Below, piece after piece: positions 10,511-54,829 of a stretch of 64,000 bases of DNA (the stretch's first letter is position 1; each line of letters starts with the position of its first letter). The notes beneath the pieces were generated by a model. That model had not been told where the DNA came from. It worked only from the letters and a program-made list of their open reading frames with translations, and searched no databases. Made by a program: the position numbers and the translations under genes. Source of the DNA: Geosiphon pyriformis uo1 (lineage: Eukaryota > Fungi > Glomeromycota); the NCBI GenBank assembly GCA_016748015.1, contig JAAOMT010000003.1, positions 438,373 through 502,372 on the forward strand, given 5' to 3'.

Positions 10511-10539
10511 TGTTGTTATGGTGGGTGGGTTGGTGATTT

Positions 10540-15990: not shown

Positions 15991-16048
15991 GAATTATTGC
16001 TAATTATTATTTCCTTTTTGATTTTTTTTCCTCGTAGGGTTCACCAAA

Positions 16049-22119: not shown

Positions 22120-23716
22120 TTCTCAATTATGAATGTTTATCCTTATTTCTGGGTCTTTTACTAGTGCTATATCTTAATGTCAGTATCTTCACATATTAAT
22201 CAATTAATAAACAACAAAGAAACAAAACTAAAGAAAAAAAAAATAAAGAAAAAATAAAGAAATTAAGCCAAAGCAATTTGTATTAATATCCCATCAATAG
22301 CTGTAATCAAGAGCTATTATTCTAATATGATTAAGTATCAGATACTATTAACATTGTTACCAATAGAATTTTAGCTATTAATTAGCATGAAATTACCCTT
22401 ATAATTCCTATAATTCATTAGTATATTAATATCATTTCAAATTATCATTTATTATTTAATCAATTATCACATATTACGATTCAATTAAAATAATCTAATT
22501 AGTATAACAGAAAATAGGATGATCAAATTACACAATACCCTGAACTTTGTAACATTTAAAAATTTGCCGAAATTTACAGAAATTCGCCGAAATTATAAAT
22601 AGTTCACCCAAATTAATCAATAGTTCAGCAAAATAACTTGTAGTTCATCAAAATATATCTTTAGTTTGCCGAAATTTGAGCAAAGAGAAAAAGTGCAAGT
22701 TCATAGACTAGTACTACAACAAGTTGTATAAAAGAAGAGCTTTTCTCTTCTGAAAAATGTATCTTACTTTAGATTTATCTCTTAAAACCATTCCTATATA
22801 CACAAAAAGAAATAAATATCAAATAATTCAAAAAACCAAATTCTTTAATTATTGTACTTGGAAAAACCCCCAAAACCCAACTAACATTTTGAAATTGATT
22901 AGCTACCAATTTCAGTAAACTGTTAGTGACTCCAGGCCTGGATAGAAAACGTTTCCCTTGATAAAAACTTATTTCTTTTACATTTCTTTTATTTTTCTTT
23001 TCTTTTCTTATTACAATTATTAGGGTAGCTTATAGATGAGATTCCTGTAGAAGAGTTGACTTTCACAGCAAAGTAACTACATATTTTTAGTGAGCTTCCA
23101 GACGAGCAATTCCTGGGAAAGTGTTGACGTTTACTACAATGTAACTACATAAAGTAACTGGCAAGGAATTGGCCATTCCACTTATAAGCCCAGCAGTTTA
23201 AATTATAGGAGATAATTTGAAAATAAATTCAGTTATTGGAGGTTCAACCACATCCAGAAAATGTGAATTCACAACAAACAGGCATTAACAACAATTAAGA
23301 AAGAGACCAAAAAACCTCCAGTAACTACATAAAGTATTAATAGTGGGAAAAGTAATTTAGATGGTAAATAATTATTTATTGATATTGATAATTCTAATTA
23401 AGATGTTGTTAAATTGAGAGATCTAGTATCTATTCTTCTTTTTTCTGCTTTTAATGCTCTTACTATATATACATAATTTGGGTTCTATAAAATTGCTCAC
23501 ATTTCTGAGCAATGTGCTATAATTTTTAAGTAATATTCACATTGCTGAGCAATATATCATAATTTTCTGACATTGTTCTACATTGCTAAACAATGTGTTA
23601 TAATTTTTGACAATGTTTCACATTGCTAAGCAATATGTTCATGTGTTAGTTACTATTTTTTTATGAGTTTATCTGTTTTTCCTACTATTTTTTTGTATGT
23701 TTTTCTATGAGTAATA
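22120..23716 (-). repeat. A2-family LTR remnant (left end lost), containing a nested solo LTR
   Basis: Colinear with 4705-5299 once 22355-23326 is removed; ends ATGAGTAATA at 23716. Confidence 0.78.
22355..23326 (+). repeat. Solo LTR of the C family, opposite orientation to element C
   Basis: Reverse complement of 39554-40534; TGTTA...TAACT; 4-bp TSD ACAT. Confidence 0.85.
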
Positions 23717-30480: not shown

Positions 30481-31629
30481 AATAATATTAAATTTCTCTA
30501 AGTGAGCTGAGTACTCTTGGTATGAAAACTAGTACTACTATTTTTTTTGAGTACATTGATTTGAGTTTGGATGTGGGAGTGTCTAGATTGATTTTTTCTA
30601 TTATGGCAGAGTTGCAGGCCATTGCTCTGGCTCTTGAGTGTGTTTTTTCTTCTCATTCAGTTAACTTGTTTTTGGACAGTATTACTGGAGGTTTTTGGTC
30701 TCCTTTCTTGAATGTTGTTGATGCCTGTTTGCTGTAAATTCACGTTTCCAGAAAGTAGTTGGACCTCCAGTAACTGAATTTATCTTCAAATTATCTCCTA
30801 TAATTTGAACTTGCTGGGCTTATAAGTGGAATGGCCAATTCTGTGCCAGTTGCTTTATGTAGTTACATTGTAATAAATATCAACTCTTTTCCAGGAATTG
30901 CTTGTCTGGAAGCTTACTAAAAATGTGTAGTTACTTTACTGTAAAAATTAATTCTTCTACAGGAATCTTGTCTGTAGGCTATTTTAATAATTGTAATAAG
31001 AAAAGAAAAGAAAAATAAAAGAAATGTAAAAGAAATAGAATTTTATCAAGAGAAACGTTTTTCTATCCAGGCCTGGAGTCACTAACAGTTTACTGAAATT
31101 GGTAGCTAATCAATTTCAAAATGTTAGTTGGGTTTTGGTTTTTCAAATTATTTGATATTTATTTTTTTTTGTGTACATAGAAATGGTTTTAAGTGATAAA
31201 TCTAAAGTAAGATACATTTTCTCAAAGAGAGATGCTCTTCTTTTATATAACTTGTTGTAACACTATTCTATAAACTTGAACTTTGCTATTTTCTACAATT
31301 TTGCTGAACTAAAGATACATTTTGGCAAACTACAAGTTATTTCTGCGAACTATTAAATATTTCGGTGAACTATCAATTATTTTGGCAAATTTCTACAAAT
31401 TTCGGCAAACTTTTGAATATTACATAGTTCGGTATTGCATGATTGATCATCGCAATTAGGTTACATTTGTGTTGTGTACAAATTGGGTTATTAATTTAAA
31501 TGATAATTTTGGATATTTTGCTAATATAATAAGTGATAATTTGAAATGATAATATATGTTAATTAATAATAGGATTTATAAGATAATTTCATGCTAAATA
31601 ATATCTCTAATTTTGTCTGGTAATATAAC

Positions 31630-32313
31630 CTCCTCCTCAAGACTGAGCTCTGTCAAAGTCCAAGTACTGTCTGTAATTTTCAGATAGTAATCCAAAATTA
31701 TTGAAGAAATTTGGTCTGAAAATTGTTAAAATTTCAGTTCTGTGAGCTTTCCAATATATTGAATCTTCAAAGATCGTAAAATTGGGTTTTGTAGGACATT
31801 TTCAAAGGTGTGGAATAGGTCATAAAGTCTAAGAGCAGCTCTGAGCTTGTAGCAACTGTTTGTTGGTCCAGCTGTTGTCTTGAATTCATTGTGAAGTTGT
31901 TTCTGAATAGCTTTTTTTGTAAGGTTTGCTGTTGTAAGTTCCAGTTTCCATTCGTAGAGTGTTTTTCCAATGTGGAAATATCTATAGATTGGAGGATATT
32001 CAGTGTTTTTCTCATTGAGACACAGTTGAAGTCTTTGTTGAATTGTAGCATTTGGTGGAATACTAATTGGAATGAGTATTAAGTTTTCTCTTAAAACAAG
32101 CTTTAAAAGTTCTGGCAGATGAATTCCAGAATAACTTCTTGTGTTCTTCTTATATGAATAATATTTTCGTGAATTTGGGGCTAAATTTGTAACTACTTCT
32201 GTTTGGGTATAATTAATGTGGTTTCTAGTAACAGTAATGAATAATTTGGGTATTGTTTTTAAAGCTAACATTAGTTTTTGGGATAATTGTTGAATGTTTT
32301 GAGGAATAATCAT
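31630..32313 (-). pseudogene. Element C ORF3, unknown function
   Basis: ORF 31726-32313 (MIIPQNIQQLSQKL...YFHIGKTL...ALRLYDLF...IGKLTELKF); homology continues toward the PPT. Confidence 0.75.
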
Positions 32314-32451
32314 TATAAGAGATTTTGAAATAAAAGAAAATTATTTTTGGTGTATGGGTTTTTATGTTATTATTATTATTATTATTATTATTTTGTTTTG
32401 TTTTTAGTGAGATTGTTTCTAAATTATAAAGGAATAACTAGTAAAATTAAA

Positions 32452-33837
32452 TTAAGTGTTCAGGTTGGAAGGTTGTTCAATGACAACTATTGGTTTTAAG
32501 TTTCAGGAAATATCTTCGGGATTGACTAAAAGGGAATGTGTACCAATTTGTGGAATTAATGGTTCAGGATTGTTTCTGGAATGATAGTGTTTCAAACGAT
32601 CTCCATGTGCAACTTTTGCTAAGATTTTGTCATCAAGTCTTAGCTTATATGATCCGTTGCCTAAGACTTCATGGATAAAAAATAGTCTATCTCATTTATT
32701 TTCAAATTTTCCACTCCATTGTTTTTTAGCTTTAGTTCTGTGTAAGAGAACTTTGTTTCCGATTTTAAATTCATTGGTGACTGGAGGCAATTTGTTATCA
32801 TGCCATTCTTTTTGTCGAGCTTGGGAGTGTTCAATATGGGTGGCTGCTATTCGTCGTTTTTCTTTCAATGTGCTAAGCAGAGTGTAGGCTTTTCACTAAA
32901 GCGTTTCTTGGAAATTGTTTTCATTGATTGGTTGTGCTGGGTATATTTCCACTGTGAAACTAATTGGTAATATTGCTGTCCTTCTATAAGTTAAATCAAA
33001 TGGTGTGTGTTTTGTGGTATCTTGTTTTAGTGTTCTGTATGCTAGCAACACTGATAGAATAAAGATATCCTACTCTTACTCAAAATCAGTTAAGACTTTG
33101 GCTAATGACTCACACAATGTTCTGTTAAAACGTTCCACAAGTCTGTTTGTTTGTGGATGGTAGGGCAAAGACAGAGGTCTTTTGACATTGAATTGTTCGC
33201 AAATTTTTTGTATCAGGTTGTTCACAAAGTGTGTCTCCTGATTGGATAAAAATTCAATTGGACATCCGTGTCTACAAATGATGTCTTCATAGATGAAATT
33301 TGCTACTGATTTCGCATCTGCTCATTGAATGGCTCTGGCTTCGGGCCATTTAGTAAGATAGTCTACAGCTACTGCAATATAATGGTTTCCTTGAGTGGTA
33401 ATAGATAATGGTCTGACTAAATTGATACCAACTCAGTCAAAGGGTTGTCCAACTTTGATTGGATTTAATAGTTCAGTAGGGCATGTTCTTTCTCTTTTTT
33501 GACAACTATCACAAGATTCGACATATTCGTGAATGTTTTTTCTTATTTGAGGCCAAAAATAGTATTCTAGTGTTCTTTGGATGGTGCTATCTTTTCCGAA
33601 GTGTGCTGATGAAGAATCTGAATGCATGTTGTATAATATGGTCTTTTTTTTCTGTTCTTGTATTAATCTGAGTGGTTTGTTTGGGTTTTTGAAATTTCAA
33701 TGATAAATAATGTTGTTATGTAGAAAATATTGTTTGGTTTGTTGTTGTAGTCGATGTTTTTCATCTGAAAACCAATCTGTTGGGATTGTTAATGTTTCCA
33801 AATATTGTTTGAGATTGTTGTAGTTTTCTGAATTCAT
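32452..33837 (-). pseudogene. Element C integrase (separate cistron)
   Basis: Starts MNSENYNNLKQYLETL; HSDSSSAHFG...CDSCQ; PYHPQTN; C-terminal PIVVIE. Confidence 0.9.
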
Positions 33838-33888
33838 TGTTTATTGGCTCTTTTGGTTGGTTAAGTTGAGTGTTGGTTTTTGTGTTTT

Positions 33889-36800
33889 CTAATCTTGTCT
33901 TATTCTGGAAAGACAGTCAACATTGGTGTAGAGTTTTTCTGGTTTGTGATGTACTATGTATCAATAGTTTGCTAGAAATCCTGTCCATCGGGTTTGTTTT
34001 GCATTCAGCTGAGTATTTTTGTTTTGAAGCCATTTGAGTCCAATATTATCAGTAATAATATCAAATTTTTTAGGCCTGAGATAAAGATTGAAGTGGTGTA
34101 GGGCCCAAATTACGGTTGTTGTTTCTAGTTCTGTGGCAGAGTAGTTTTTCTCAGCTGGTTTTAATGTTTTGCTAGCATAAGCAATTACTTGCTCATTTCC
34201 ATTGTCATTTAGTTGTGATAAGATGGCACCAAAGACAGTATATGAAGCATCTGTAACTAGTCAAAATCAGTTGCTGAAATCCAGGTAGATGAGGATTGGA
34301 GCTGTTGTCAGTTTTTTCTTGAGAATTCCAAAAGCTTTTTGGTGTTTGGTAGTCTATTTGTATTTAACGTTTTTGGTGGTGAGCTGGTTGAGGGGTTTTG
34401 CAATTTCCAAGAATCCTTTAATAAACTTCTGATAGTAGGATGCTAATCCTATGAATCCTCTTAGTTTTGTAGTGTTTCGAGGAGTTTTGAAGTTTTTGAC
34501 AATGCTGATTTTTCCAGGGTCCAGTTTGATTCCATCTTTACTAACAATATGCCCAAGGAAGGCCAAGCTTGTTTTTCCAAAGTAGCATTTTTTGATGTTG
34601 AGTTTTAGTCCTGCTTTTTGTAATCATTGAAAAACTTCTCACAGGTGTTTTAAGTGTAATTCGAACAATGGAAAATAAACATCAGTATTGTCAAGATAAA
34701 CGACTACTGACTTCCAAAAAAGTCCTTAGTATACAACATCCATTAATCTCTAAAATGTTGCTGGTGTATTGCATAATCTGAAAAGCATTACGTTGAACTC
34801 ATAATTTCCGCCTTGGGTGGTGAATGCTGTCTTGGGGCAATCTTTGGAATTCATAGCAACTTGCCAGTAACTGCTTTCTAAATCTAGTGTTGAAAAGTAT
34901 TTGGATTTTCCAAGGGCATCTAACATGTCATCAATCCAAAGAAGGGGGTAGGCATCTCCAATTGTAACACTGTTGAGTTGTCGATAGTTAACACAAAATT
35001 GGATCTTTCCATTTTTCTTTTTAACTAGCACTACAGATAAAGCTTAAGAACTCATGGAGGGTTGGATGAGCCCATTGTTAAGCATTTGTTGTACTTCTTC
35101 TCGAATGAATTGGTGGCTTTCTGGAGCAACTCAATATGCTTGTTGTCTTCTTGGTTTGGCATTTTCTGTATAAATTTGGTGTTGGGCCAAATTGGTTCTT
35201 TCTAAGTCATTGTTGTTTTCAGCAAAAATATCGGCAAATTCTGCAATTAGCTCTTTGAACTGGGTCTGTTGTTGTGATTCAAGTTGTCCCATGTTGATTC
35301 GAAATAGTTTTTCCATGACAACATGGTAGTTTTCAGAGCTGGGGTTTGGGTTGATTTTTGGTAGTAAATGTCCAATAATTTCAGAGAAATCGGGAACTGT
35401 TTGGGGTAATTCTTGTTGAAATATATTACTGTGAATAACTCCAATTTCTAAATTATTTAATAAGATTATGGGGTAATTATTGGGGTTGTAAAAAGTAACT
35501 CAGACTTTCTTTGTTCCTTCTGAAATATAAATGTTTGGAATTGAAATATTATGTTCCAAGCAGATTTGTTTATTGGACTCAAAAATTTGTTGTGTGGTTG
35601 TTGGCTTTGGGCAGGTGTAGATTTCCAGATGTTCTCCAAAGGGTGAGATGGTAATTAGTTGTGGAAGTCTGAGAATCTGGTGGGATTCGTTCTGTGTGTT
35701 AAGAGCTATATTAACTGGAACTGTGAATCGTCCAATTGAACCAAAACCTTGGGTTCCTCTATTGCTTTTTCTTAATTGTTCTCTTTGATTGACTAGTTGC
35801 AAACCCAAAATGTTGATTAGGAGTAGGTAAATAGCTTGGGCAATTTTTTTAGCATGTTCAATCTTGAATGATTTGTCAGTTTCATTTTGAAGCATTACTG
35901 TAATGTCTTCAGTATATCCAGCATCAATTATTCCTCCTCTGACATTGATTCTTTTACTTGCCAGAGAAAACCGGGAGGTAATTTGAACCATTGCTCTTGG
36001 CAGAATTTTGAGTGCAATTTTGAGATTGATTTTTGTGAGAGATTTGGGTTTGAGAACAAGAGTATCCTTGCCTGGATATCTTAGGTCATATCCAGCATCA
36101 ATTTCATGTGCTTTTTCGGATTTTATTCCTTGTCTATTGTTGTTGAAGTATTTAAGTTGTAAGGCAGGCTGATTTTCAATAAGGTAGATGGGTGTTGTTT
36201 CAATTTTTTCCATTGCTTTAGGTTCTCCAAATTCAATTTTGTTCTCATCATTTTTGCTGGGCAAGGGGATACTAAGAGCATAGCATTTAGAACACTACTG
36301 TTCATCACAAGGCATAATGCATTCTTCACATAGCCTAATGTTTATTTGCTCTAATTGTTGAATTTAAGCTTCTTGGGTTGGATAGATGTGACTTGCAATT
36401 TGGTAGTAGACTTTTACTTTGTCTTTATAATCGAATCCAGCTAATTCCATAGTGTATTTAATGTATTCTGCTTCCTTTATTTGACAAACATCTTCTTTGG
36501 TAGCTCTATTAATTAATGCCATTGCTAGGTCAAAAATCATTTCGGCATCATGGGAGTAGTGATAAAGTTTGTTGAAAGCACTGTTATATGCCATATTAAA
36601 AGGTGTTTCTCTTTTTACTTTTTCTGAAATTAATAAAGCATATTGGCAGATCTGATTGCAGACTTCTCCTCTCATGGCTACATTAATCCAATTGCATTTT
36701 TCCGATAGCATATCTCCACAAGTCAAACAAGGGGTGTTATCCCATTTTCTGCTTCTTTTTATTAGATGGCCCTATCATTCTCTGTGGCAAGCCTTGCAGT

Positions 36801-39507
36801 AATAACAAGTATGATTTTCATATTCTTCTTCAGGTAAAATGCAGGCTCCCATTGATGATAGTTTCTTGTGGCAGTCTTTATATTTAAGGGGAATATAGGG
36901 GCATTGTTTCCTTGGTTTGGGTTTTGAGTAAGGGATATTCCATCCAGAGGTTTTGGGTTCAGAGTGTGGGGTAAAATGTTCTTGTTCTGTTTCATCAGCC
37001 CAGTTGGACATTGATTCAAAAACCATGAATGTTTCAATGAGGGGTTTTTCCTCTTCCAGTTCGAATTCAAAAGCTGGGGCTTTTTCAAAGCGTTTGTTAA
37101 ATGTACCACAAGTGGCAGATACCTAGGCATGTTGTCCTTGATAGGAGATTGTTAACCCTTGTGTTTCTCAATTCAGATTAGCATTGGCTTTTTGAAGCCA
37201 ATCATTTCTGACAAGAGCTTGGTACTGGGGTGCGTCCATTACAAGAACTTTGACTGAAATGGTGATTCCATCAAGAGTAAATGAAAAATTGTCAATTTCT
37301 CCTATTGGGGTCTTTTTCATGCCATTGGCAATGACAATTACTGTTTGAGCTGGTTGGTTGACATTTTTTTTCAACTGTTGCATTAACTGGTAGGTGATAA
37401 TGCTTCCGGCGGATCTACTTTCTAAGATCAAGCAAATTGTCTTTCCTTTAATTTCTGCTTCAGTGTACATAGCCATGATTGCTTTTTGTTCATTGGCAGC
37501 TGCATTGCTAAGCAGGAATGGTGACTTATTTGCTTCGAACTCAAAAGAGAATATATCTAAAAGGTTAGTGTTTTCAGCAATTCTGGCTGGTGGAATTGTG
37601 GTGGGAGTATAAGAAAAGTTTTGTTGTTGTGCTGCAGCTCTACTTTCTGAGAGTGCAGTATGGTAAAAATCCTGTTCTTCTGGCATTGTTAAATAACTGG
37701 GTTGAGTATAATAGTGGTTGGGTCTTGGTTGAATGGAATTTTGGGGAATTAATTGGTTGTTTGAACTGATTCTATTGTTGTTTACTTGGTATCAGTTTTG
37801 TGGTGTGAATTGATTTTGTGTAATCAGTCTTCGAGCAGGTACTTGATAATGTTGTGTGGGTAGTTGTTGGTATTGCTGTTGGATTGGTTGTGGGGCAGGC
37901 TGATAATAGTTATTTTAGTATTGGGGTCTTGGTGAATAGTAAGCTGGTGGTGGTGGTTGATAATAAGATTGCTGTAGTGGAGGGTAACATTAATTACTCC
38001 TATTTTGTTGGTCTCATTGTAGCTTTCTGCAATCTTTTTTCCAGTGGTCAGAGATTCCACAGTAATGGCAATTCTGAGGCTGGTTATTGGAAAGTGGTGC
38101 AAAGTTATTTTGATTTTGTCTTTGGGATGGTTGATATCTTTGGGGTTGCTGTTGTTGTTGATTAGTGAAATAGTTTTCAACCTTCTTTATGAGTTGGTCA
38201 ATTTTTTTCTCAGCTGCTGAGCTGGTTTCTCTAATTGCCAAATTTACAAGTTTTGTGCAATTGGTCTCTTCCATGGCTATTTTGTATCTTTTCGCATGCT
38301 GTATGACAGAGTTTAAATCTTCTAGCACATGTGGGTGAACCTTTTTAATTAGTTTATTTTTTAGACCAGTGATAAATTGATCCAAGATTTGAGCATCAGA
38401 ATAATAATTGTTTGTTTTGAGTTGGCAAATTTGTCTGAAAAGTTTGTTGAATTTTCCAATATAAGTCATAACAGATTCGGAGGGTTCTTGTTTGATATTT
38501 CGAAAACGATTGTGAAGGATGATGGAGGTATTATTGTCGGTAAACTGTTCAAGAAAGACTGCTTTGAAAGCATTCTAATCATTGAATGGGACAGCCAAGT
38601 TTTCAAACCATTCTCCTGCTGTTTCTTTAAGAAAGTAGGGAATTGTTCTTAACATTCTGGCAGCATTCCATCCATTTGTATCTCCAGCTTTAGTAACTTG
38701 GTCGAGCCATTCTTGGGGACTAGTCTCAATGTCTTCTCTATTAAATTCAGGAATTTTTGTGATGTATGTTGTCATTTTGTCTTCTTTGTTTTCACTGTTT
38801 ATTGATTCTTCTTTAGATATTTCAGATTTGTTTTCTTCGTTTGCTGCTGTCTCAGAGTGTTCACTTTGATTTTCAGCTAGAAAGTCAAGGAGATTGGAAC
38901 TAGTTTGAAGGGGTTTTTGTTGTCTGATGGGACTTCTGAGTAATGTAAAATTTTCTGGTCTTGCAAATCAATTCAAAGGTGAATTAGGCATTTGTGCTTG
39001 TGCAAGTGAAGCTGGAAAAGGTGTGATAATAAGTGGAAGTTTTGAACTGGTTCCTTGTTCAGGTGTTTGTAAATGTTTGGCAGTTGTTTTTGGTAGTGTT
39101 GGAGTATTTGGGGTGGTTTTTGAGTATTGTTTTAATTTGTTTTTGCCTTTGTTGCTTGTTTCTGTTTCCGATTCAAAATTAATAGAGTATTGAGACTGCA
39201 CTGGATATGTTTCTTCACAGTATTTAATAATATTAAAATTAAGTTCGTGAAAGTAAGTGGCAAGTGTTTTACTGTTAAGGTCTTCAGTTCCCAACTGTAA
39301 ATAGTGTGCTAAATTATTGTAAAGGTTGCTTCTAACTTCTGAAATATTGTAATTTCCAAAAAGATAATTGTTGATGCGGTTTTCAATGTATTAGTATACT
39401 GATTTTTTGACAACTTCAATTTCGTCTGGAATGTTAAATCTTTGCTTGCAGTAGGTATAAATTGATTAGTAATACTTTAGAATTGTTGTGTCTGGTGTGG
39501 TTGCCAC
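33889..39507 (-). pseudogene. Element C polyprotein Gag-PR-Cys-rich-dUTPase-RT-RNase H
   Basis: CHYCGISDHWKKDC; degenerate PR LILESRSAGS; dUTPase in 35500-36264; RT pieces 34750-35031, 34354-34566; ends VDCLSRIRQD*. Confidence 0.9.
35731..36157 (-). pseudogene. dut: dUTPase domain of element C
   Basis: All five trimeric dUTPase motifs: AGYDL, SRFSLA, GIIDAGYT, KIAQ, RGTQGFGSIG. Confidence 0.93.
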
Positions 39508-42500
39508 TTTGAATTTTGTTGTTGCTGTGTTATTTCTGTGGGAGAGCACCAAATGTTACCGGAGGTTTTTGGTCTCCTTTCTTGAATGTTGTTGATGCCT
39601 GTTTGCTGTGAATTCACGTTTTCAGGAAGTAGTTGGATCTCCAGTAACTGAATTTATCTTCAAATTATCTCCTATAATTTGAACTTGCTGGGCTTATAAG
39701 TGGAATGGCCAATTCTGTGCCAGTTGCTTTATGTAGTTACATTGTAGTAAACATCAACTCTTTCCCAGGAATTGCTCATCTGGAAGCTCACTAAAAATGT
39801 GTAGTTACTTTGCTGTGAAAGTCAACTCTTCTACAGGAATCTCGTCTGTAGGCTACCCTAATGATTGTAATAAAAAAAGAAAAGAAAAATAAAAGAAATG
39901 TAAAAGAAATAGGATTTTATCAAGGGAAACGTTTTTCTATTCAGGCCTGGAGTTACTAACAGTTTACTGAAATTGGTAGCTAATCAATTTCAAAACGTTA
40001 GTTGGGTTTTGGGAATTTTCCAAGTGCAATAATTAAAGAATTTGGTTTTTTGAATTATTTGATATTTTTTTTTTTTTGTGTATGTAAAAATGGTTTTAAG
40101 TGATAAATCTAAAGTAAGATACATTTTCTCGAAGAGAGATGTTCTTCTTTTATACAACTTGTCATAACACTATTTTATGAACTTGAACTTTGCTATTTTC
40201 TACAATTTTATTGAACTAAAGATACATTTTGGCAAACTACAAGTTATTTCTGCGAACTATTAAATATTTCAGTGAACTATCAATTATTTCAGCAAATTTC
40301 TACAAATTTTGGCGAACTTTTGAATGTTACATAGTTCGGGGTATTGCATAATTGATTATCGCAATTAGGTTACATTTGTGTTGTGTACAAATTGGGTTAT
40401 TAATTTAAATGATAATTTCAGACATTTTGCTAATGTAATAAGTGATAATTTGAAATGATAATATATGCTAATTAATAATAGGATTTATAAGATAATTTCA
40501 TGCTAAATAATATCTCTAATTTTGTCTAGTAACAACAGCCAGACTGCTTTGGATGCATGTAAATTAGAATCCATGTTGACTCATCCAGATTTCAGAAATC
40601 AGTATTGAATTGAGCATTGCCATATTGTTAATGTTATTTATCACAAAAATTTAGATGTTAATTGGATTAAAATTAGAGGTTACTCTGGTGTCTTGGGCAA
40701 TGAACATGCTAATGTTTTCACTGGAGCTACTGCTTTTACTGAAGCTACTGCATTCTTTGATATGTGTCTTCCTCACATAATCGATGAATATTTTCTCAGA
40801 GCTGGTGGTATTGCAGTGTTTAGTAGTTCTAGGCATTTTGTTTGTGGTGTTTTCTGATTTGTTTATCATGCACACTAGGAGGTTGGTTCTGGTTACTAAG
40901 TTTTGGTGAATAACCTATATGCTGATGTTGATTGGTCTAGATCTTCTTTGGTGTGGCATCCAGACTTTTATTTGGCTGCTGGTTTCACTAGTACTCAGAT
41001 TGCTGGCTTTTGAATGTATTTTATAAAGACATTGCATTATTATCTTCCAGTTGCTGTATGTAAGTGTCTTTATAATAGGAGTTATTCCAGTGTAATATGT
41101 CTATTCTGCAGCAATGTTGAGGTCTCAGACCATGTGTTTTTTTGTCCATTTGATGCTGCTAATTATGCTCAGTTGATAGAAGTTCATGCATCTGCTTGGG
41201 AGACATGCTTGAGTTTATTTCGCTCTTCTTTATGTGTTTCATAGTTGCTTTCTACTTGTGTCTCCAATGTTGTTGTTGGTGCAGTTCTGTGTAAAAACTT
41301 TGTTTTCAAGGAGTGGTATTGTGAATTTGTTGTTGTTTTTAAAAACTATAAGGTTGCAGCTCAGTCTTTGTGCATGAGTTTTGTCTTGTGTTTCATAATA
41401 ATGTTTGGCTAGTGTGTGCTAAGCACCAGGCTGTTATGAAAAAAGGTGACATGATTCTGCATAATAATTCTGTTTCTGTTTCAATCTCTGGTCTTCTTTT
41501 GGTGCTTTTGGCCAGTGTGGTTAGATTGTTGGATATTGCAGATACATTTGGTATTAGTTTTGGGTTTTGTAAATCTTGTTTATTTTTTTCAGGTATAGAT
41601 AATATAGTTTTAGTATATATAAGTGCCTAGTGTTGTTCTAACTAGCATGAATGGCTGGTCACATGTAGAAAATGCATGATTCATACCTAGTTTAAATCAC
41701 TTGTATAATGTATTGTATTAGGCAGTGTTTGGATCTTACTCGTTAAATTGAATAAAAAAAAAATATATTAAATAATTAATAATAATATTAAATAATAGAA
41801 AATAATAAATAATAATTAACAAAAACAAAGTAATATAAAAAAATATTAAAAATATTAAAACAAAAAATAAAAATATATACAAATAGTTTTAATTTTAAAA
41901 AAATATCTTGTATATATTTAAATTATATAAGTTAATATATAAGATTTTATTAAAATATTCAAATTTAATTATTTTTTTATTTTAATAAAATTATTAAATA
42001 AATTTTTTAATTTTATTATTAAAATATTTTTACTTGTTTATAATTAATATAATATTTTAAATATTTTAATAAATTGAACCAATTTTTTTTAATTATAATT
42101 ATTAATAGAATATTAATTTTTTAATTTATTTTTTTGGTTTTTTTTAAAAAAAATTGTAATTAATTTAAAATTAATCAAATAATCGTGGAAAAAACTCTTT
42201 GTCTCCTTAATTTTATGACCACGACCAAAACAAAAAGTAAAAAAGCTATACCTGATATCTGTCCTGAGATATCTAATAAAATTTCAACCAGAGAAGCTCT
42301 CTCTGTTGTAGAAGCAACTAAGCAAAACGTTTTAGAAGCCTTTTCTTTACTCAGTAATTGTGATAAACTGTCTTTGGTGGCCACTGAAACAACTTCCTCA
42401 TCTTTGGCTAGTTTTTCACCAGTCAAAGTTCTCTTAAAGAGACACACTTGGATTAGTCCCAGTGTTGCCTTCACTTCTACTAAGAGCCCAAAAGTGTTTA

Positions 42501-44314
42501 ATAATAGACCAGTTAACAAGCTGGTTTTTCCTTCCATAGCTCTTACATTTGGTGCTGCTAGCATCTCCTCTTCAAAAAAAATGGTCAAAAAGACCAAAAG
42601 TTCAAAAAAGTGGGAGCAGTCACTTGTCTCTGCTATTATTATATCAAATCTCTTTGTGGTTTCCAATAAAATTTTAGATAAGATTTCCATAGCATTATTC
42701 AGTATATCATCCAAAATAGGCCTAGATCAACCACTGGCTGTGTTGCCAAATATGGTGTCTTCTAGTAGATTGTCACCAGTTTTAGAAACAAAACAATCTC
42801 TTCCTGTTGGGTCATCTGTTCTTGAGAACTGGACTGATTAAATGAAAACTGAATCATCTCCTCCTCTAGTTTCTGGTGCTACTTCTAGTGGTGCTTGGGA
42901 AACTATTGCTAGTTGCCAAAGGTTTGCTGGGTGGGTGGCCTCTATTCTGGTGCTTAATGCTACTTTTAAAATCAAATTGGCTTATATTAAGGCTGTTTTT
43001 CAATTAGTACATAGTTTTCTGAGTGTGAAGTCAGTATCAAAGGACAATATGAAGCTGTTTTGTGTGAAGTTTGCTTCTCAAGTGTCTTTAAAAGCTGCAT
43101 TTTTGGTTGAACTTACAAGCTCTGTATGTTTGGCTACCCTCAAAATTGCCAAGTTTTTGGTGGTTTCTGAGTTTGGCTCTTCTTCTGCTGCTGTTGTGCT
43201 GCATAATGTGCTGTTATGAGTAAACATAGTGAGTATGGGAAATGGTAATATTTGGTGCTCTCAATTATTAATGATGCATCTTCCACATAATTCTGTTGGC
43301 TTAGTTTTGATTATCAATCTCTGAAGGTTTATTTCTGGATGTGAATTTACCCATTGAGTTCTTTGGTTATAAGGCACAGAGTTTGTCTTTTGTTGATTAC
43401 AACGTTTTTCGTAAATGTAAGCTTTCTTTTCCAAGCTAATGAGCGCAGTTGTTAGGGTCTGGTGTTGTCTTTTCACCCTTCTGGTAAGCTAATAAGATAA
43501 TGTTAATATCCAAAACTTAGGGGGAGCTTCCCTCTTTTACCAGGCTATCACGAAGTTTATTTCCAGACAGTTGATTTTACTATGTTGCTGCTCCACAAAA
43601 AATAAGACAGAAAAAGAAAAAAAAAGAAAAAGAAAAAGAAAAAAAAAGAAAAGAGAGAAAAGATAAATTAGTATTGTCAATTGCTGTAATCAAAAGTGAT
43701 TGGTCCAAATCATTAATAGGTTCGAGGTGGTTATGCTAAAAGCATCTGTCCTAGAACAGAGGTATGAGACAAGGATTAATTCACATAAATTCCATGAAGT
43801 TCGAGAACATGAATTCGTAATTCTGATTTCTTTAATAATTGGTTTATTTCAGGAGATGAAATAGGGAAGATAATAAAAGATGAAGAGATATGGATATTTT
43901 AATTCTTGTTTAAAGGTTCGTATCTATCTGTCTGTCTTTTTTCACTTCTACAACTACTTGCTTTTATACATTCTTTTGGTTTTACAGGATTGCTTTCAAT
44001 TGTTTTGCTATTGCTAGCTATTGCTTTGTTGTTTCTGTTATTGCTTTGTTTTTCTATGTTATTGCTAGTTATCCTATGTTATAACACATTATCTGATGCT
44101 ATTACATGTTATTCTATGTTATCCTGCATTATAACACGTTATCCTACATTATTGCATGCTATTCTGTGTTATTCTGCATTATAACACATTATTCTATGTT
44201 ATAATACATTATTCAATATTATTGTGCATTATTCTGTGTTATGTCATGTTTTGGTCACGTTTCTTCATAACTTTGGATTGGTTTTTCTATTCGGGTAACA
44301 TTATTCCTCTCTTT

Positions 44315-45048
44315 TTAAAATTGAGCTCCTGCGAAACTGTATGTATCTGTTATTGTGGCTTTGTTTATGTAATGTTCGATTGTTGCCTCAAGTATTGCCT
44401 TTTGTAGGTCTTTGAACTGTTGATTGGTTATTTGTCCTATGTTGTTAACCGTTATGGTTTTCATAGATCCATTTAGTAGTACGTTTGGACAATGTTGAAA
44501 GGCTGTGTATAGTCGGTATGCTGCTTTGTAATGTAGGGTCAGGTTGTTTTTCCCTACAAATTTTTCTATTTGTTGTATTGCTTCTTTGTTAAACATTTTC
44601 TGGCTGAGGTCTTTGTATGGTGTTTTCAAGTCAAGCTGTTCTCTAATTTTGTAGAACCAATAAGCTGGAGGAAGTCTTTCTTTCCATTCTTGGGCATTGT
44701 TAGGTATCCACTCCCCTGTTTCGGAGAGTTCAGTCCCATGAGCTAAAGCTTCTTTTATTTTTTCAAGCTTGGAGACCAAGTATCTTCTTTTGTAACCTTT
44801 TTTTGTTCTTTGTCTCCTTCTTTTCCACCTCCTGTCTGAAGGCAATTTTTCCTTCAACATTGTCTTTCGGGTGGTGGGTAGGGGAGGGAATGTTTAGTTC
44901 TAATTGAACTTTTGTCCTCCCCTCTCCTGCTTTTATCTTTGTATTGTATCTCTTTTTTATCAATTGTTATTTCTATTTGAGATGTCAATTTTTGAATTGT
45001 TTCAAATAATTGTTTAGATAATTTTAAAATTTGATCTGAAAAGTTTAT
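44315..45048 (-). pseudogene. Element D ORF3, unknown function
   Basis: Pieces 44854-45258 (NFSDQILKLSKQL...IEITI) and 44315-44860 (WFYKIREQL...AAYRLYTAF...IGQITNQQF); probable start ATG>ATA at 45048. Confidence 0.72.
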
Positions 45049-45128
45049 GTTGAAATTTCTATCATTTTTTGCTGCTTTTCGGATGCTATATATATTTGAA
45101 TTCCCCAATTTAATTTGCTGCCCATTGT

Positions 45129-46496
45129 CTATGTTTCGATGACAATGATTGGTTCTAGATCTCGTGGTATATTTTCTGGTCTGATTAATGAAATTTGTGT
45201 TCCTAGTTGAGGTATTGATGACGATGATTCCTGTTTTACATGATAAATTTTTAACCAATTTCCATGTACTACTTTCTTTAAAATTCTGTCTTCCAATCGT
45301 AATTTGTAAGCTCCATTTCCTAATGCTTTGTGTATGTGGAATAAATTATCCCACTTTGGGTCAAACTTTCCACTCCACTGTTTTTTAGCTTTTGTATGAT
45401 GTAACAGTACTTGGTCTCCAATCCTGAATTCCATTGGTTGTTCTGATAGGTGTTTATCATGTTTTTCTTTTTGTCATTCTTGAGCATGACTAATATTGTT
45501 AGCTGCTGTTTTTTGATTGTTTTTTAACGTTTCCATTAGCTGGTACGTTTTTTGGTATAAGGTAGTCTCAAAATTCTCTTCATTGATTGTTTCTGTTGGG
45601 TATGACAGTATCACTCATTCAATTGGTAATGTAGTTTTTCTTCCATAGACTAGTTCGAATGGTGTGAACTGAGTCATATTTTGTTTCAATGTTCAGTATG
45701 CAAAGAGTACAAAAGGTATGAATAAGTCTTATTCTTGTCTGTTTTCATGACTTATTTTTGCTAGTGCTTTGTACAGTGTTTTGTTAAATTGTTCTACTAG
45801 TCCATTTGTTTGTGGGTGGTATGGTGACGATAAGAGTCTCTTTATTTTAAACCATTGGCTTAGTTCAGTCAGCATATTATTAACAAAGTGTGTTCCCTAA
45901 TCAGATAATAATTCTTTCGGACATCCATGTCGGCAAATTAGGTCTTAATGCACAAATTTGGTGACTGTTTTGGCATTAGCCACTTGGATTGCTTTGGCTT
46001 CTGGCCATTTTGTAAGATAGTCTATGGCTACAGCAATATAGCAATTTCTTTGGGATGTAATCAAAAGAGGTCCAACCAAATCAATCCTAATTCTATCAAA
46101 TAGATTTCCAACTGGAATGGGTCAAAGTAGTTCTGTTGATCTTGCTCCTTCTCTTTGCTGGCATGCATCACAATTGAGCATGTATTCGAAAATGTCTTTG
46201 TATATCATTAGCCAATAGTATAAGTTTAGTGTTCTTTCAAGGGTAGTATCTTTGTTAAAGTGTTCTGCAGTTGGATCTGAGTGCATGCTATATAGTATAG
46301 TTTCTCTTTTACTGTTTTTGATTAGTCATTGTGGATTGGAGTGGTTTCAGCATTCTCGTCGATATAGTTGGTTGTCTTGAATAAAATAATTTTGGGCTTG
46401 TTTTCATATGGTACTCTGTTCTTGTTGAGATAATATCTTCTTGAAACATAGTGTCAATAGGTACTGATGTAGTCATTAATAAGTGAGTGTGTCCAT
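45129..46496 (-). pseudogene. Element D integrase (separate cistron)
   Basis: ATG at 46496 (MDTLTY..LHQYLLTL), HHCC, PYHPQTNGLVE, C-terminal PRDLEPIIVIET*. Confidence 0.9.
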
Positions 46497-46506
46497 GGAT
46501 CTGGGA

Positions 46507-49500
46507 TTAGGTTTGTGACATCCTCGACAAACTGTTAGCATTGGTGTTCTTAGATCCTCCCTTGTAATAGATTTTGAGTGGAAATTGTTGCAGATAAGTA
46601 CTCCATCTCACATATTTTCCTTCTAGTTATGGATTGTTAAGTAACCAAATAAGTCCTTTGTGGTCAGTATATAGGTCAAATGGTTGACTGAGGTAATGTT
46701 TCCAAGTCTGTATGGCCCAATAAATGGTGAGACATTCTAGATCTGTTGTGCTGTAATTTTTTTCTGCTGGGCTAGTGCTGCAACTAGCATAGACAATTGG
46801 GTGTTCTCTATTGTCTGGTCCTATCTGTGATAAAACTGCTCCTAGAGCATTTTTCGAGGCATCCATAGTGACAATGAACTGTTTAGTAAAATCTGGATAA
46901 ATCAAGATTGGGGATGTGATCAATTGCTGCTTAAGATAGTTGAATGCTTTCTGTTGATCTTCCTTCCACAAGTACAGTACATATTTAGACAACAATTGAT
47001 GAAGTGGTTTTGTAATGTTCGAGAAACCTTTGACAAATCGATAATAATATTCTGCCAATCTTAAAAATCTTCGTAATTCTCTAAGGTTGATTGGGGCTGG
47101 AAAATCCTTGACTTTTTGTACTTTATCTGGATTGGGTTTAACTTCATCTTTGCTAATTACATGTTCTAGAAATTTTAATTTGGTTTTTCCAAAGAAGCAC
47201 TTCTTGGGATTGAGTTTCAATCCGGCACTATGAAGACATTTGAAGACTTGTTGCAGGTGGAGCAGATGGTCTTCGAATGTTTTGGAGAACACATTTGTGT
47301 CGTTTAGGTAAACTACTACTAATTTCCAAAGAATTCCTTTGTATACTACATCCATCAGGTATTGAAACATAACAGGAGCATTACAAAGTTCAAAAGACAT
47401 TACATTAAACTCAAAGTTTCCGTCTTGAGTAGTAAACACTGTTTTTTCTTTGTCTTTGGAGTCCATTTCAACTTGCCAGTAACCACTTGCTAAATCTAAT
47501 GATGAAAACTATTTCTTTTTCCCTAGATTGTCCAGAATTTCCTGGATGAGGGGAGTGGGATAACTATCTCTTCGCGTAATGCTATTTAGTTTTTGATAAT
47601 CTACGCAGAATTGCACTTTTCCGTTTTTCTTGGTAACCAAGACTACTGGAGAGAACCAAGGGCTTAATAATTCTTTGATTAAGCCATTATCAAGCATTCA
47701 TTGCACTTCTTGCTTAATTAGGTTATCACCAGATGGGGGTACGCGGTAAGTTCGTTGCTTAATCGGTCGAGTGTCTTCCATATTAATCTGATGCTTCACA
47801 ATGTCGGTGCATTCGAACTTATTTTCATTGACAAAGACATTGGCATACTAATTCAGAAGGACTTTGAGTTGCATTTGTTGCAGGGTACTTAAATTTCCTA
47901 AATTCAATTTATTGATCTCTTCTAGTGTGAACAAGTAACTTTCTTTTGGCAAATTCCATATTTGTGAAGTAATGTCACAGAATAAGAATAATTGTGCGAA
48001 ATCTAGAATGGACTGGGGTTTTTCAGGATTCTAAATATCTGCGGATATGGAACTGATGAGGGTTCCTTCGGGGATTTCAATGACATTTTCTGTCGGGTTG
48101 TAAATGGGGATTTTGAAGTGTTTATGGACTTTGGCCAGTAGGTATAGATTAGCAACATCAGCTAGGGAACAAATTTCAGAACTGGCTTTGAATAACAGGG
48201 CTTGATCTTGAATCTTTCGATTCACCTTAAGGATGTATTGTCAGTATAGGGGAATGGAGATGATGATGTCAGTGTTGATAAATTCTATCTGGTTACTGTC
48301 TTCCTCCATAAAATTAACTGGTACGTTTCCTCTTCGACTTTATCCAAACCCATTAATTCCTCGAGCAGTGAGACCTAACTCTTTTCAGGTTGTTACTGGG
48401 GTTAATTGGGGTATTTTAACTAGGGGTAGGAAGATAGCTTGGGCAATCTTTTCTTGTAATTTTATTTTGTAGGGTCTGTCCGAATTGTTTTATAGCATCA
48501 TGATAATATTTCCCATGTAACCGACATCAATGATTCCTCCTTTTACATCAATTTTTTTCTTGGCTAGACTAGATCGAGAGACAACTTGTACCATTGTACT
48601 AACAGAAATTTCTAACACTATCTTAAGATCTATTTTTACGAGGGAATGTGGGACTATAATGATGAGTGATTGTTTGGAGTATCATAGATCAAAACTGGCA
48701 TTGGTGTCATGCACTTTTTTGGGACAGATTCTTTCTTTGTTGTCACTGTACCATTTTAGCTCTAGTTTTTTGAATAGGTTGGGATACATGAGATACTGTT
48801 CTGTTTCAGTATCCTCAGTTGGATCTTGAAATGACATGTTCTTGGTGATCAATACCTCTTCTTTAGGCTCAGGTAGTTTGGTGATTGGAAACAGTATTCT
48901 TGGAGGCGGATTGAACATGAGATCACATTTGTCACAGTACTGGAAATGACAGGGGATCAAACAGTGATTGCACAGTTTGGTATTCAAATCGGCCAACCTT
49001 TGCTCTTGTTCTTCGTGAGTCAGGACCAATTTTTGATATCAGTTCTGAAATGTGTCTGGGTCATTTGTGAAGAAATCATCTTTGGAATAGTCAGGTCTAT
49101 TATATTTGGGTGTCCAAGGGTTGTTCTTGATTTCTCGTATTTTTTCAGGCATGGCGCCTTTGGCCTTGGTGCTTGCCATTCTCCAGATTTCATGGTCATT
49201 GTGTGGATAACTGTTCAGCCTGTTGAGTGCTCGTTTCCAAGCATCCTCGATAGAGGTTCCCTTTCATACCCAATTGTTGATTAATATGGTGTATTGACAA
49301 GCCTCGTCGCATGTTTTTCCTCTGCCAAGCACATTATTCCAGAGTCTTTTATCTGGCAGAATTTTGCCATATGCGAGGCACAATGTGTTGTTCCACTTGT
49401 CTTGTCATTTTGGTCATCCAAATCTTTCCAATAAACAAAGTCTGCAATAGTATTTGGTGGCAGTGGGCCATTTTTCGTTGTCCTCGATACATGCACTCAT

Positions 49501-52275: not shown

Positions 52276-54829
52276 TTTTATGTATTTTTGGGGGTGCTCT
52301 GTCTCTATGGATTTATAACTTCACAGGAAGCACCAAATGTTACGGGTAAACTTGATGGGTATAGGAAATGGTAACGTTTGGTGCTCTCAATTATTGATGA
52401 TATGTCTTCCACATAATTCTGTTGGCTTAGTCTTAATTATCAGTCTCTAAAAGTCTATTCCTGAATGTGAATTTATCCATTGAGTTCTTTGGTTATAAGG
52501 CACAGAGTTTGTCTTTTATTGATTGCAATGTTTTTTGTAAATATGAGCTTTCTTTTCCGAGCTAATGAGCACAGTCATTAGGATCTGGCATTGTCTTTTC
52601 GCCCTTCTGATAAGCTAACAAGATAATGTTAATATCCAAAACTTAGGGGGAGCTTTTCTTTTTTACCAGGCTATCATGAAGTCTATTCCCAGACAGTCAA
52701 TTTTACTATGTTGCTGCTCCACAAAAAATAAGACAGAAAAAGAAAAAAAAAGAGAGAAAAGATAAATTAGTATCGTTAATTGCCGTGATCAAGAGCAATT
52801 GGTCCAAATTGTTAATAGGTTTGAGGTGGTTATGCTAAGAGCATCTGTCCTAGAATAGAGGTATGAGACAAGAATTAATTCACGTAAATTTTACAAAGTT
52901 TGAGAACATGAATTCGTGATTCTGATTTCTTTAATAATTGGTTTATTTCAGAAGATGAAATAGGGAAGATAATAAAGGATGAAGAGGTATGAATATTTTA
53001 ATTCTTGTCTAGAGGTTCATATTTATCTGTTTGTCTTTTCTCACTTCTATGACTACTTGCTTTTATACATTCTTTTGGTTTTACAGAATTGCTTTCAATT
53101 GTCTCGTTATCACTAGCTATTGCTTTGTTGTTTCTGTTATTGCTTTGTTTTTCTACGTTATTGCTAGTTATCCTATGTTATAACATGTTATCTGACGTTA
53201 TTACATGTTATTCTGTGTTATCCTGTATTATAACATGTTATCCTACGTTATTGCGCGCTATTCTGTGTTATCCTGCATTATAACATGTTATCCTACATTA
53301 TAACGTGTTATCCAATGTTATTGCGTGTTATTCTGTATTATGTCACATTTTGGTCACATTTCTTCATAACTTTGGATCGGTTTTTCTACTCAAGTAACAG
53401 TGCCTTTGGGTGTGTTAGCTGCTAATATTATGACAGCTCTTAGTGTTTTTGGTGTAATTATTTGTGTTGTACTGAAGCTTGCTGGCATTTGGCAGTATGT
53501 TGTGGTCTATTTTGAGAGTTTAATTGCTGCCACATCTGCTCTCAATTACTGGTCAGTTTTGGTGAACAAAAATAGTGTTCGGATTCTTCCCTTTGTGAAT
53601 CAACAAGAAATGATTGTGTCTCATGATAAGTTTAAAGCCAAGTTGGTTAATCTTCCTCCTAACTGTATTACCTTTGAAATTAATAATATGGTTTCTCAAG
53701 TTGGTGGTCAGACTTGTTTTATTCTTTAGTCTTTTGATTCTTGTCATTGTTTTTACTTTGCTCTGGTTACATTTGGCTCTCAAGCTGATTTAAACTTTGC
53801 TGTTGTTAAAACTGGTACACTAAAAAAGTGCCATATCTGGTGAGAAACTCCTGGTTGTCAGTATTGTTTTTAGTATCAAGAGATGGGCCACTTGGCCATG
53901 GACTGTAAAGTTGCTCTACCTTCTCTTTTTAAGGCTCTAAGATGTTTAGACTACATGTAGTTGGTTCTTTGTCTTATGCAAAAGCATTTGTTCCCTGAGT
54001 TTTCTTTTTTGGTGGCTTCAGCTCCTTCTGTTGTTGTTGATAATTCTTTGGTGTCCTCTTGGCTGGTGTCTCTAGAATCTGATTTGGCCAAGCTTTCTGT
54101 TTTGGTTGAATCTATTGTTAAGTCTATTGGCTCTATGGTCAAAATTTTTGAACAATTTGTTAATAGTGATCTGGTTTCTAGTGCTGCTCTTGGCCTTAGA
54201 GTCAATGAAGTTTTGGTTCACATGGGTTTCTTTAGCAAAGCTGTTGGTAAGTTGAAATGGAAAGTGATTGCTCTGAAATCTGAGTGTGGCTTTGAGGATA
54301 TTGACATGTCAGGTCCTCATGTAAGTTTGTCATTTTTTAATGATAATATGTTTTCTAATTTAATGTCTCTTTGAGAACATGAATCTGCTGCTGTAAAGGC
54401 TGATGTCTTTAAGACAGCTAAGTGATTAGTTGAATTGATTAATAATAGTGCTACATTATTTGAAATTGTTCAAAGAATGTCTTCTTTGAATAAGTTTTCT
54501 TCTGATGCATCAATGTAGTATAGCCTGAACTGGCTCAAATAGCTGGTTACATGTAATCAGCATGTGAATCATATTTAGCCTTGGATTACTTAGTTTGGTC
54601 CTAATTTTTAGATGGTAATTGGGCCATACTTGTTAAACTCATAATAAAAAAAAAATTTAATCAAAAATAATATATATAACAAATTAGTAATTTAACTATT
54701 GTAATAAATAATTTAATATTATAATAGCTTGATAAAAAAAATTTTTTTTTTAAGAAATTAATTTTATAATATATTATAGTTTATCAAAAAAACAAAAAAC
54801 AATATTAGATTTTATTAATTATAATTTTT

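Follow-up and report, generated by a model that had tools for sequence, protein, structure and literature searches.

The stretch of Geosiphon pyriformis DNA analysed here (64,000 nucleotides, hereafter the window) holds four copies, A to D, of LTR elements, all on the minus strand. Three of them, B, C and D, are Ty3/Gypsy LTR retrotransposons in a state of decay: Gag-Pol stops with RNase H (RH), and integrase (IN) and a further gene, ORF3, follow as separate reading frames. We consider it probable that they belong to a Ty3/Gypsy clade with a split Gag-Pol/IN/ORF3 layout, in which IN would be made by termination and restart of translation on the full-length RNA. The integrase of LTR retrotransposons and retroviruses normally enters the particle fused to Gag-Pol and is then cut out by the protease. 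A clade with IN as a separate gene must solve the dosage and the delivery of the enzyme otherwise, and is a natural variant in which both questions may be approached.

Pfam searches on stop-free pieces place Gag, protease (PR), a Cys-rich domain, dUTPase, a spacer, reverse transcriptase (RT) and RH of B, C and D in a single frame, with no frameshift (Table 1). In each copy the RH stop lies four codons past an LSR motif. IN has an ATG of its own, which follows that stop after 29 (B), 51 (C) or 10 nt (D), in three different frames, the IN of C being in frame with RH. ORF3, which is homologous among the three, comes after IN. The common layout proposed in an earlier note on this DNA is seen in all three copies, as are the largely dissimilar LTRs, which align at just 46-49% identity between B, C and D. 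The other shared traits that it listed hold in part: three types of primer-binding site (PBS) are found among A-D, A having the type of D; the TGTTA...TAACA ends are kept in the 5' LTR of C, those of its 3' LTR having decayed; a 4-bp target-site duplication (TSD) flanks C, D and a solo C-type LTR, and a polypurine tract (PPT) is present in C and D; and A follows the layout as far as it is present.

The internal stops of Gag-Pol in B, C and D number 4, 23 and 26, and a frame change lies within the ORF3 of D. The PPT, outer end and TSD of B are hidden, because 19 nt that we take to be sequencing-adapter sequence cut into its 3' LTR and a gap of Ns truncates the 5' LTR. A search of sequencing runs for B gave a single match, X1, and no RNA-listed run; the contigs of X1 diverge from the window sequence at 8440, a loose end, and leave the RH-IN junction uncovered, and are thus silent on expression. 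The LTRs of C are 93.9% identical, with 57 transitions and 1 transversion. As changes are nearly all transitions, the divergence of the LTRs was not taken as a clock. A spliced antisense transcript may run over B, but a coding role for it was discarded, several exons having stops in all three frames.

Table 1. Features of the four element copies in the window (minus-strand parts within elements are mostly given in the direction of reading).
Copy	Feature	Position	Strand	Remarks
A	Element, partial	1..4681	-	LTR-PBS-Gag-PR-Cys-rich only
A	5' LTR	3846-4681	-	
A	CA	2806-2318	-	
A	PR	1417-1043	-	
A	Cys-rich	694-83	-	
B	Element	8202..16387	-	least decayed copy
B	5' LTR	from 16049	-	runs into N gap (16388-16515)
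B	CA	15192-14683	-	
B	PR	13938-13564	-	
B	Cys-rich	13362-12760	-	
B	dUTPase	to 12373	-	
B	RT	11904-11188	-	
B	RH	11187-10555	-	
B	Stop	10542	-	TAA, then 29-nt spacer
B	IN	10510-9134	-	
B	ORF3	from 9046	-	
B	Presumed adapter remnant	8422..8440	+	19 nt, assembly artefact; joins ORF3 to shortened 3' LTR
	Solo LTR, family C	22354..23326	+	opposite orientation; flanks ACAT
C	Element, full-length, decayed	30680..40534	-	TSD ACAG, both flanks
C	5' LTR	39554..40534	-	TGTTA...TAACA
C	PBS	39536..39551	-	TGG-initial
C	Gag-Pol frame without IN	33892..39390	-	23 internal stops
C	CA	38772-38266	-	
C	PR	37479-37105	-	
C	Cys-rich	36909-36280	-	
C	dUTPase	36114-35731	-	
C	RT	35256-34540	-	
C	RH	34539-33904	-	
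C	Stop and spacer	33838..33891	-	TAG at 33891; spacer 51 nt, A/C-rich, ATG-free
C	IN	32452..33837	-	own ATG; 461 codons; 9 internal stops
C	ORF3	31640..32313	-	in-frame stop at 31728; 3' end approximate, reaches PPT
C	PPT	31629..31638	-	
C	3' LTR	30680..31625	-	termini decayed to TATTA...TAATA
D	Element, full-length	43212..53399	-	TSD GTGC
D	LTRs	43212-44300 and 52338-53399	-	
D	CA	51471-50968	-	
D	PR	50142-49771	-	
D	Cys-rich	49539-48925	-	
D	dUTPase	48717-48343	-	
D	RT	47868-47152	-	
D	RH	47151-46522	-	
D	Stop	46509	-	TAA, then 10-nt spacer
D	IN	46496-45132	-	
D	ORF3	about 45125-44318	-	

With canonical Ty3/Gypsy elements such as yeast Ty3, and with the Metaviridae generally, these copies share TG...CA LTRs, a 4-bp TSD, PBS and PPT, a Gag capsid (CA) with CCHC, and the order PR-RT-RH-IN; the best solved-structure matches of RT-RH (E 9e-99) and of IN (E 4e-51) include Ty3 Gag-Pol (7q5b). 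The difference is that canonical IN is the last domain of the Pol polyprotein (PMC12440569, PMC3248453), whereas in this clade Pol ends at RNase H and IN and ORF3 have their own ORFs. Several assignments were discarded. No Chromo family is found on the IN of B or in the Pfam lists of 120 IN homologues, and the rows that bear a chromodomain sit outside the clade in the RT-RH tree, which rules out a chromovirus. Troyka elements, with CG...CG ends and a 3-bp TSD (PMC12440569), are excluded by the TGTTA...TAACA ends and the 4-bp TSD, and a Ginger1 DNA transposon by the position of IN behind RT-RH between direct LTRs. An errantivirus or other env-bearing Gypsy element is ruled out by an ORF3 with an all-helical model and neither a transmembrane stretch nor an env family match.

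Could the separate integrase be what decay has left of an ordinary gag-pol, or be reached by readthrough or frameshifting? The copies are heavily mutated and the IN of C is in frame with RH, as such a reading would have it. The same split is found, however, in stop-free relatives: locus L006 has a 1479-aa Gag-Pol followed by IN, and consecutive Rhizophagus irregularis accessions from equal-sized contigs (CAB4418908/909, CAB4412239/238) consist of a Gag-PR-RT-RH protein and an IN of 430 aa. Among metagenome loci with an IN at least 40% identical and an RH end on the contig, all 9 are split, and 23 of 32 more distant classified loci are fused, counts that omit three loci without an H2C2 match and every locus without an RH end. 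Fifty-seven of 89 long homologues with a single RT have no IN, and 31 of these stop within 12 aa of the RH end. The start of IN is itself conserved: 119 of the 120 best homologues begin with Met, in a search confined to 252-804 aa where fused forms could not appear, and the H2C2 His follows the start after 64-72 residues in 101 of the 120, and after precisely 71, the value of B, in 73. Moreover, the spacers range from an overlap to 727 nt and use all three frames, so that no single recoding signal spans them. Comparison of these sequences has thus largely refuted the decay or recoding reading, to which we give next to no credence, in agreement with the view of the earlier note.

The split forms share one branch in a FastTree analysis of 152 rows (0.947), and form one RT-RH clade with an SH-aLRT of 96, without bootstrap, in an IQ-TREE run on 69 rows that omits the other 83 and takes its outgroups from search matches instead of reference clades. 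B, C and D fall into one sub-clade (support 100), with RTs 59-61% identical to that of B. The diverged families announced earlier are thus three families of one sub-clade, rather than independent lineages. Members of the clade come from arbuscular-mycorrhizal-type fungi and soil metagenomes. No relative of the IN of B was found in viral_contigs, where a profile search gave four distant loci.

As to how IN is expressed, we propose that ribosomes end translation at the Gag-Pol stop of the full-length RNA and resume it at the next ATG downstream. This is the likeliest route, at about even chances, because the spacers before IN lack ATG while the end of the upstream ORF does not: in the 13 spacers of 200 nt or less a single ATG is seen against 12.3 expected (Poisson P 6e-5; three long spacers are omitted), and 31 are counted, against 22 expected, in the final 90 nt of the ORFs upstream. 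Because of their shortness the spacers of B, C and D carry no weight in the test (expected 0.13). The three long spacers among the 16 (278, 365 and 727 nt) contain ATGs lying over 80 nt ahead of the IN start, a misfit with simple stop-coupled scanning. Precedents of termination-reinitiation outside LTR elements are SART1 and LINE-1, the latter with a 63-nt spacer (PMC5972666); as in these and in caliciviruses, a second long ORF begins at or shortly past the first stop. They are, however, non-LTR elements or RNA viruses, and the mechanism of the clade is deduced from its sequence. Of 15 junctions, only 2 have the caliciviral UGGGA motif within 90 nt of the ATG, and neither is from B, C or D. 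Reinitiation would yield less integrase than RT from a single-frame Gag-Pol, and an IN not carried on Gag would have to reach the particle or the cDNA in trans. Binding to element RNA or DNA would be the probable means, possibly with the help of ORF3.

The same clade and layout could instead produce IN, and ORF3, from subgenomic RNAs, through an internal promoter or splicing, as happens for env-type third ORFs; we regard this as a distinctly less probable route. The ORF3s of LTR elements are typically made from spliced messages (PMC5408684). In the long spacers the ATG-free part is confined to the last 80-150 nt, which resembles a short 5' UTR, and a purine occupies position -3 in 14 of 17 IN starts versus 64 of 107 internal ATGs. 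Within the clade, two gene models of Rhizophagus clarus also splice RH to IN, at the loss of the final RH residues; going by the models, and not by the DNA, we read these fusions as intron-bridged gene predictions. Against subgenomic RNAs, the ATG-free zone starts at the stop in 12 of the 13 short spacers, with an ATG-rich coding end upstream, the spacers of B and of loci L010 and L016 contain no AG for a splice acceptor, the spacer of D is only 10 nt long, and at locus L017 the IN ATG overlaps the upstream stop. Internal initiation on the full-length RNA, at an IRES-like or ribosome-tethering element before the ATG, seems unlikely. It would account for a 39-nt motif directly upstream of the IN ATG in the seven loci from which its model was built, which also matches locus L025, weakly matches L002 and has no match in Rfam. 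All cells of the motif are paired (100%) and 4 of 12 pairs are changed on both sides, a score biased in its favour since the structure was drawn from the same sequences. But the motif is matched neither in the window, where the spacers of B, C and D are short and G-poor, nor in most other loci of the clade, and it could serve packaging or IN binding instead.

By sequence comparison, the separate IN and ORF3 are the only clade-wide features of the layout. The full layout, previously taken as the clade's own, did not survive this comparison, since dUTPase occurs in 5 and the Cys-rich domain in none of 55 IN-less relatives; both are add-ons of a sub-lineage. The function of the dUTPase family is to limit uracil in DNA, and by analogy the element's enzyme likely does so in its cDNA. 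The Cys-rich region of the local sub-clade likely binds zinc as an accessory domain; its predicted model is of low confidence (pLDDT 54.6) and an Atlas search gave no usable match. Its identity with a Cys/His-rich tail that follows RH in another sub-clade was ruled out, there being no profile match in either direction. ORF3, in contrast to these add-ons, is clade-wide (498 clusters), and has a confident, all-helical predicted model with a core of about 140 aa. It is modelled as a soluble protein, not env-like: none of 121 members has a transmembrane stretch (19-residue hydropathy mean above 1.6), and neither Pfam nor any env family is matched, so that the label 'retrovirus-like' given earlier was too strong. 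Fold searches of PDB and BFVD gave nothing at E 0.001, which does not imply a new fold; the best VIA match (Z 5.0, rmsd 3.6, 81 aligned) is a generic helical one, and Atlas matches of 0.91 (134-138 of 256 features) were taken as chance level.

The dUTPase of B, C and D had been noted as accessory, and it is present in all three, but its place between PR and RT is already known from fungal Gypsy elements: PosPlaTy3-5 has dUTPase there in Pol, and its relatives, Phanerochaete elements and Tuber Tmt1 also carry one (PMC2864245). The bdelloid Juno, Vesta and TelKA elements likewise combine a dUTPase in Pol with non-env ORF3s, though theirs are env-like, GDSL, DEDDy or TM proteins (PMC5408684). As far as these two sources describe such dUTPase-bearing elements, their IN stays in Pol. 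Errantiviruses and other env-bearing three-ORF elements also have a third ORF before the PPT, but the ORFs of the clade are gag-pol, IN and ORF3 rather than gag, pol and env. With Ginger1 and the Gypsy elements whose integrases bear YPYY (Athila/Tat, Cer1, Gypsy-1_RO, DGLT-A), it shares a free-standing IN (about 420-460 aa) that has an extension N-terminal to H2C2, a DDE core and a GPY/F-like motif, as well as TGTNR ends and a 4-bp TSD (PMC2836005); the likeness of the YPYY region to that extension was judged by eye. Unlike Ginger1, the clade has its IN gene inside an LTR element behind RT-RH, and neither TIRs nor an OTU/Ulp1 tail.

That the clade is possibly undescribed, as first suggested, stands to the extent that a lineage emerges which is widespread and has an expression layout of its own, and that no published LTR element whose IN has a reading frame to itself turned up in a search of mainly open-access papers, Repbase, GyDB and Dfam lying outside it. 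One might speculate further that it is an undescribed Glomeromycotina-wide LTR lineage with IN freed from Pol, stop-and-restart translation of a tricistronic RNA, and an ORF3 that brings IN to the particle or cDNA. This combination is a doubtful one; if true, it would be a new design of the LTR-element life cycle and a living intermediate that links Gypsy elements with Ginger-type DNA transposons. For work on reinitiation the clade also offers a polycistronic RNA of eukaryotes whose first ORF is long, and in ORF3 a conserved protein family with no known relative. LTR elements make up 41% of the Geosiphon genome (PMC11952901), and the clade gives a handle on the genomes of AM fungi, its IN and ORF3 genes being annotated as DDE transposases or hypothetical proteins.

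Copies B, C and D, three of the decayed Ty3/Gypsy-type elements of the window, belong to a real and conserved group, apparently undescribed, which is defined by an integrase (IN) encoded as a separate ORF and by a conserved, non-env third ORF (ORF3). In all three the capsid, CCHC, protease (PR), Cys-rich region, dUTPase, spacer, reverse transcriptase (RT) and RNase H (RH) lie in a single frame (Pfam), which carries 4, 23 and 26 in-frame stops, respectively, and no frameshifts, and which ends 4 codons past the last RH motif. The IN ATG follows this stop at 29, 51 and 10 nt, in three different frames, with ORF3 3' of IN.

We searched for IN homologues restricted to 252-804 aa, so that fused forms, with IN inside Pol, could not appear; the DNA of the loci was then fetched. 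The best 120 homologues in this size range stand alone as proteins of some 390-450 aa, with an N-terminal Met in 119, exactly at B's position in 73. Among metagenome loci (L numbers), the split is seen in all nine that have at least 40% IN identity and a contig reaching the RH end, and 23 of the 32 more distant loci classified are fused; of the other nine, L028 alone carries an ATG close to the conserved position. Locus L006 encodes a stop-free Gag-PR-RT-RH of 1479 aa, then IN, then ORF3. Only one RT is present in 89 of 120 long RT-RH homologues; IN is missing from 57 of these 89, of which 31 stop no more than 12 residues past RH. In annotations of Rhizophagus irregularis, a protein of the Gag-PR-RT-RH type and an IN of 430 aa carry consecutive accessions. 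The genera named among the cluster members are Rhizophagus, Entrophospora, Paraglomus, Cetraspora, Gigaspora and Geosiphon; the bulk of the members are metagenome-derived and without host. The nine close split loci, L006 and the R. irregularis pairs rule out the separate IN as a decay artefact; the earlier note had named an ordinary gag-pol in intact copies as a refuting outcome, and stop-free relatives show a separate IN instead. A distant fused Gypsy element with a dUTPase and a chromodomain (L026:2000-7357) lies outside the split clade.

One branch of the RT-RH tree (152 rows; FastTree 0.947) unites B, C and D with eight split loci, two gene models of R. clarus and 55 of the 57 proteins that lack IN; IQ-TREE (69 rows) gives SH-aLRT values of 96 for the split branch and 100 for B+C+D. 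The R. clarus models join RH to IN with the RH end dropped, and are probably intron-bridged predictions. The RT/RH placement called for earlier gave a single branch relative to outgroups that are unnamed or auto-named matches rather than named lineages. Ty3 is among the top solved-structure matches for both RT-RH and IN.

ORF3 homology was found in 10 of 11 tested ORFs downstream of IN, and a profile built from the loci only gave as its top three window matches the ORF3 of D, B and C (E = 2e-5, 0.004 and 0.02). The family matches 498 clusters at 50% identity. The structure of one member, predicted with confidence, is helical (pLDDT 95.6), with no clear match in a fold search of PDB and BFVD. 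This helical model, the lack of a shared Pfam family and the absence of a hydrophobic segment in all 121 members rule out env. The single layout proposed for the whole clade therefore holds for the separate IN and ORF3, but not for the dUTPase, present in 5 of 55 relatives, or the Cys-rich domain, present in none of the 55; both are local additions. The Cys-rich domain keeps its cysteine pairs over A-D at about 40% identity and has no database match. A dUTPase between PR and RT, as in B, C and D, is described for fungal Gypsy elements (PMC2864245). Another sub-clade has a different Cys/His-rich domain after RH (L006:3494-4438, L003:2-541, about 20 proteins), unrelated to that of the window; one relative, P0209, has a dUTPase after RH, and another, P0216, is listed with PF00293. 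Accessory domains have been gained repeatedly by the split clade.

Readthrough or frameshifting cannot reach IN, because the distance from stop to IN ATG varies from an overlap up to 727 nt, and every frame occurs. The 13 spacers of up to 200 nt contain one ATG against 12.3 expected, ATG being their most depleted triplet after GGG, whereas the upstream ORFs contain, in their final 90 nt, 31 against 22 expected; the ATG-free zone thus begins at the stop. The spacers of B, L010 and L016 are AG-free, and in L017 the IN ATG overlaps the stop; the junction is 18 nt or less in 2 of 17 cases (D and L017). The ATG-free zone, the AG-free spacers and the L017 overlap favour termination-reinitiation, in which ribosomes would terminate at the Gag-Pol stop, scan briefly and restart at the IN ATG, and to which we give about an even chance. 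Three long spacers with upstream ATGs, the lack of a UGGGA motif at most junctions and structured RNA before the IN ATG in one sub-group count against it. IN might instead be translated from a subgenomic RNA, which we consider rather unlikely, or by internal entry on the RNA, which seems more doubtful still. The expression route may differ among sub-groups. Termination-reinitiation is shown for SART1 and proposed for LINE-1 (PMC5972666), a stop-then-restart translation akin to the short-scan reinitiation suggested for the split-clade IN.

A conserved 39-nt RNA motif, with two stems, an 11-nt purine-rich bulge and a bulged A, lies directly upstream of the IN ATG in some loci (see table); its pairs covary, it has no Rfam match, and none was found in the window.

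Positions of the elements in the window and of the 39-nt motif in metagenome loci
Feature	Position	Strand
Element A, partial	1-4681	minus
Element B	8202 to N gap at 16388	minus
Element C	30680-40534	minus
Element D	43212-53399	minus
39-nt motif	L003:585-624	
39-nt motif	L005:185-223	
39-nt motif	L006:4463-4501	
39-nt motif	L009:490-528	
39-nt motif	L014:175-213	
39-nt motif	L019:8-46	
39-nt motif	L022:492-530	
39-nt motif	L025:19-58	

Literature searches found no description of an LTR element that encodes IN in an ORF of its own (literature compared, in part: PMC2864245, PMC3248453, PMC12440569, PMC2836005, PMC5408684, PMC5972666, PMC11075540, PMC11952901, 10.1101/2021.03.30.436303 and 10.64898/2026.05.21.726589), and three papers on transposable elements of AM fungi handle Gypsy, in the parts examined, at superfamily level. 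The suggestion of a possibly undescribed clade is in line with this, but Repbase, GyDB or Dfam entries, or supplements, may hold such a layout.

The window holds decayed retroelements in a nested arrangement. The ORF3 of B is 96% identical to annotated Geosiphon pyriformis proteins, which points to this fungus or a near relative as host. The dissimilar LTRs and three PBSs reported for B, C and D were confirmed: LTR alignment identity between families is 46-49%, and there are three PBS types, that of A being of D's type. The TGTTA/TAACA ends and 4-bp TSDs were found at intact LTR termini and around C and D (TSDs also at a solo C-type LTR), but the PPT and TSD of B are hidden, its 3' end being cut at 8422-8440 by what we take to be a sequencing-adapter remnant, which truncates the ORF3 end, PPT and 3' LTR. 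A degenerate tandem array with a 10-nt unit is present in the LTRs of D (44027-44262 and 53126-53361). Transitions and transversions in the LTR pairs of the three elements B, C and D number 57:1 (for C), 117:1 and 6:0, an extreme bias, and changed versus unchanged C number 35 vs 22 in CpG, 81 vs 214 in CpA, 29 vs 81 in CpC and 29 vs 205 in CpT, which suggests methylation-driven or RIP-like repeat mutation.

In contigs of one sequencing run (X1), which mostly match B at 95% or more, eight segments bounded by GT..AG on the plus strand are missing from 12000-16040, where the window has GT-initial donors (GTAAGT and GTATGT among them) and AG acceptors; several exons of these antisense contigs have stops in every frame. 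In this one run, represented by contigs only and of a type that is a guess, the pattern resembles that of a non-coding antisense RNA, spliced several times, across family B gag-pol. One X1 contig joins 8464 to 12000, with ends other than GT..AG and 25 letters on the short side, and is possibly an internally deleted family-B copy without RT, RH, IN and ORF3.

Between the LTR elements, decayed repeats (about 4900-7900, 17000-22000, 23400-30300, 40535-42840 and 53400-58000) show a mutual likeness of 65-75%; their ORF fragments, judged by eye, are presumably pieces of non-LTR retrotransposon endonuclease, RT and RNase H. Element C is inserted within one such repeat, the solo C-type LTR interrupts, at 22136-23485, a sequence that resembles the LTR region of A, and beside A's 5' LTR lies a further A-like stretch (4720-5071). 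The segment 58000-64000, with a very AT-rich part (GC 0.09) followed by normal CpG content (o/e 1.2-1.4), probably marks where the repeat block gives way to host genes.
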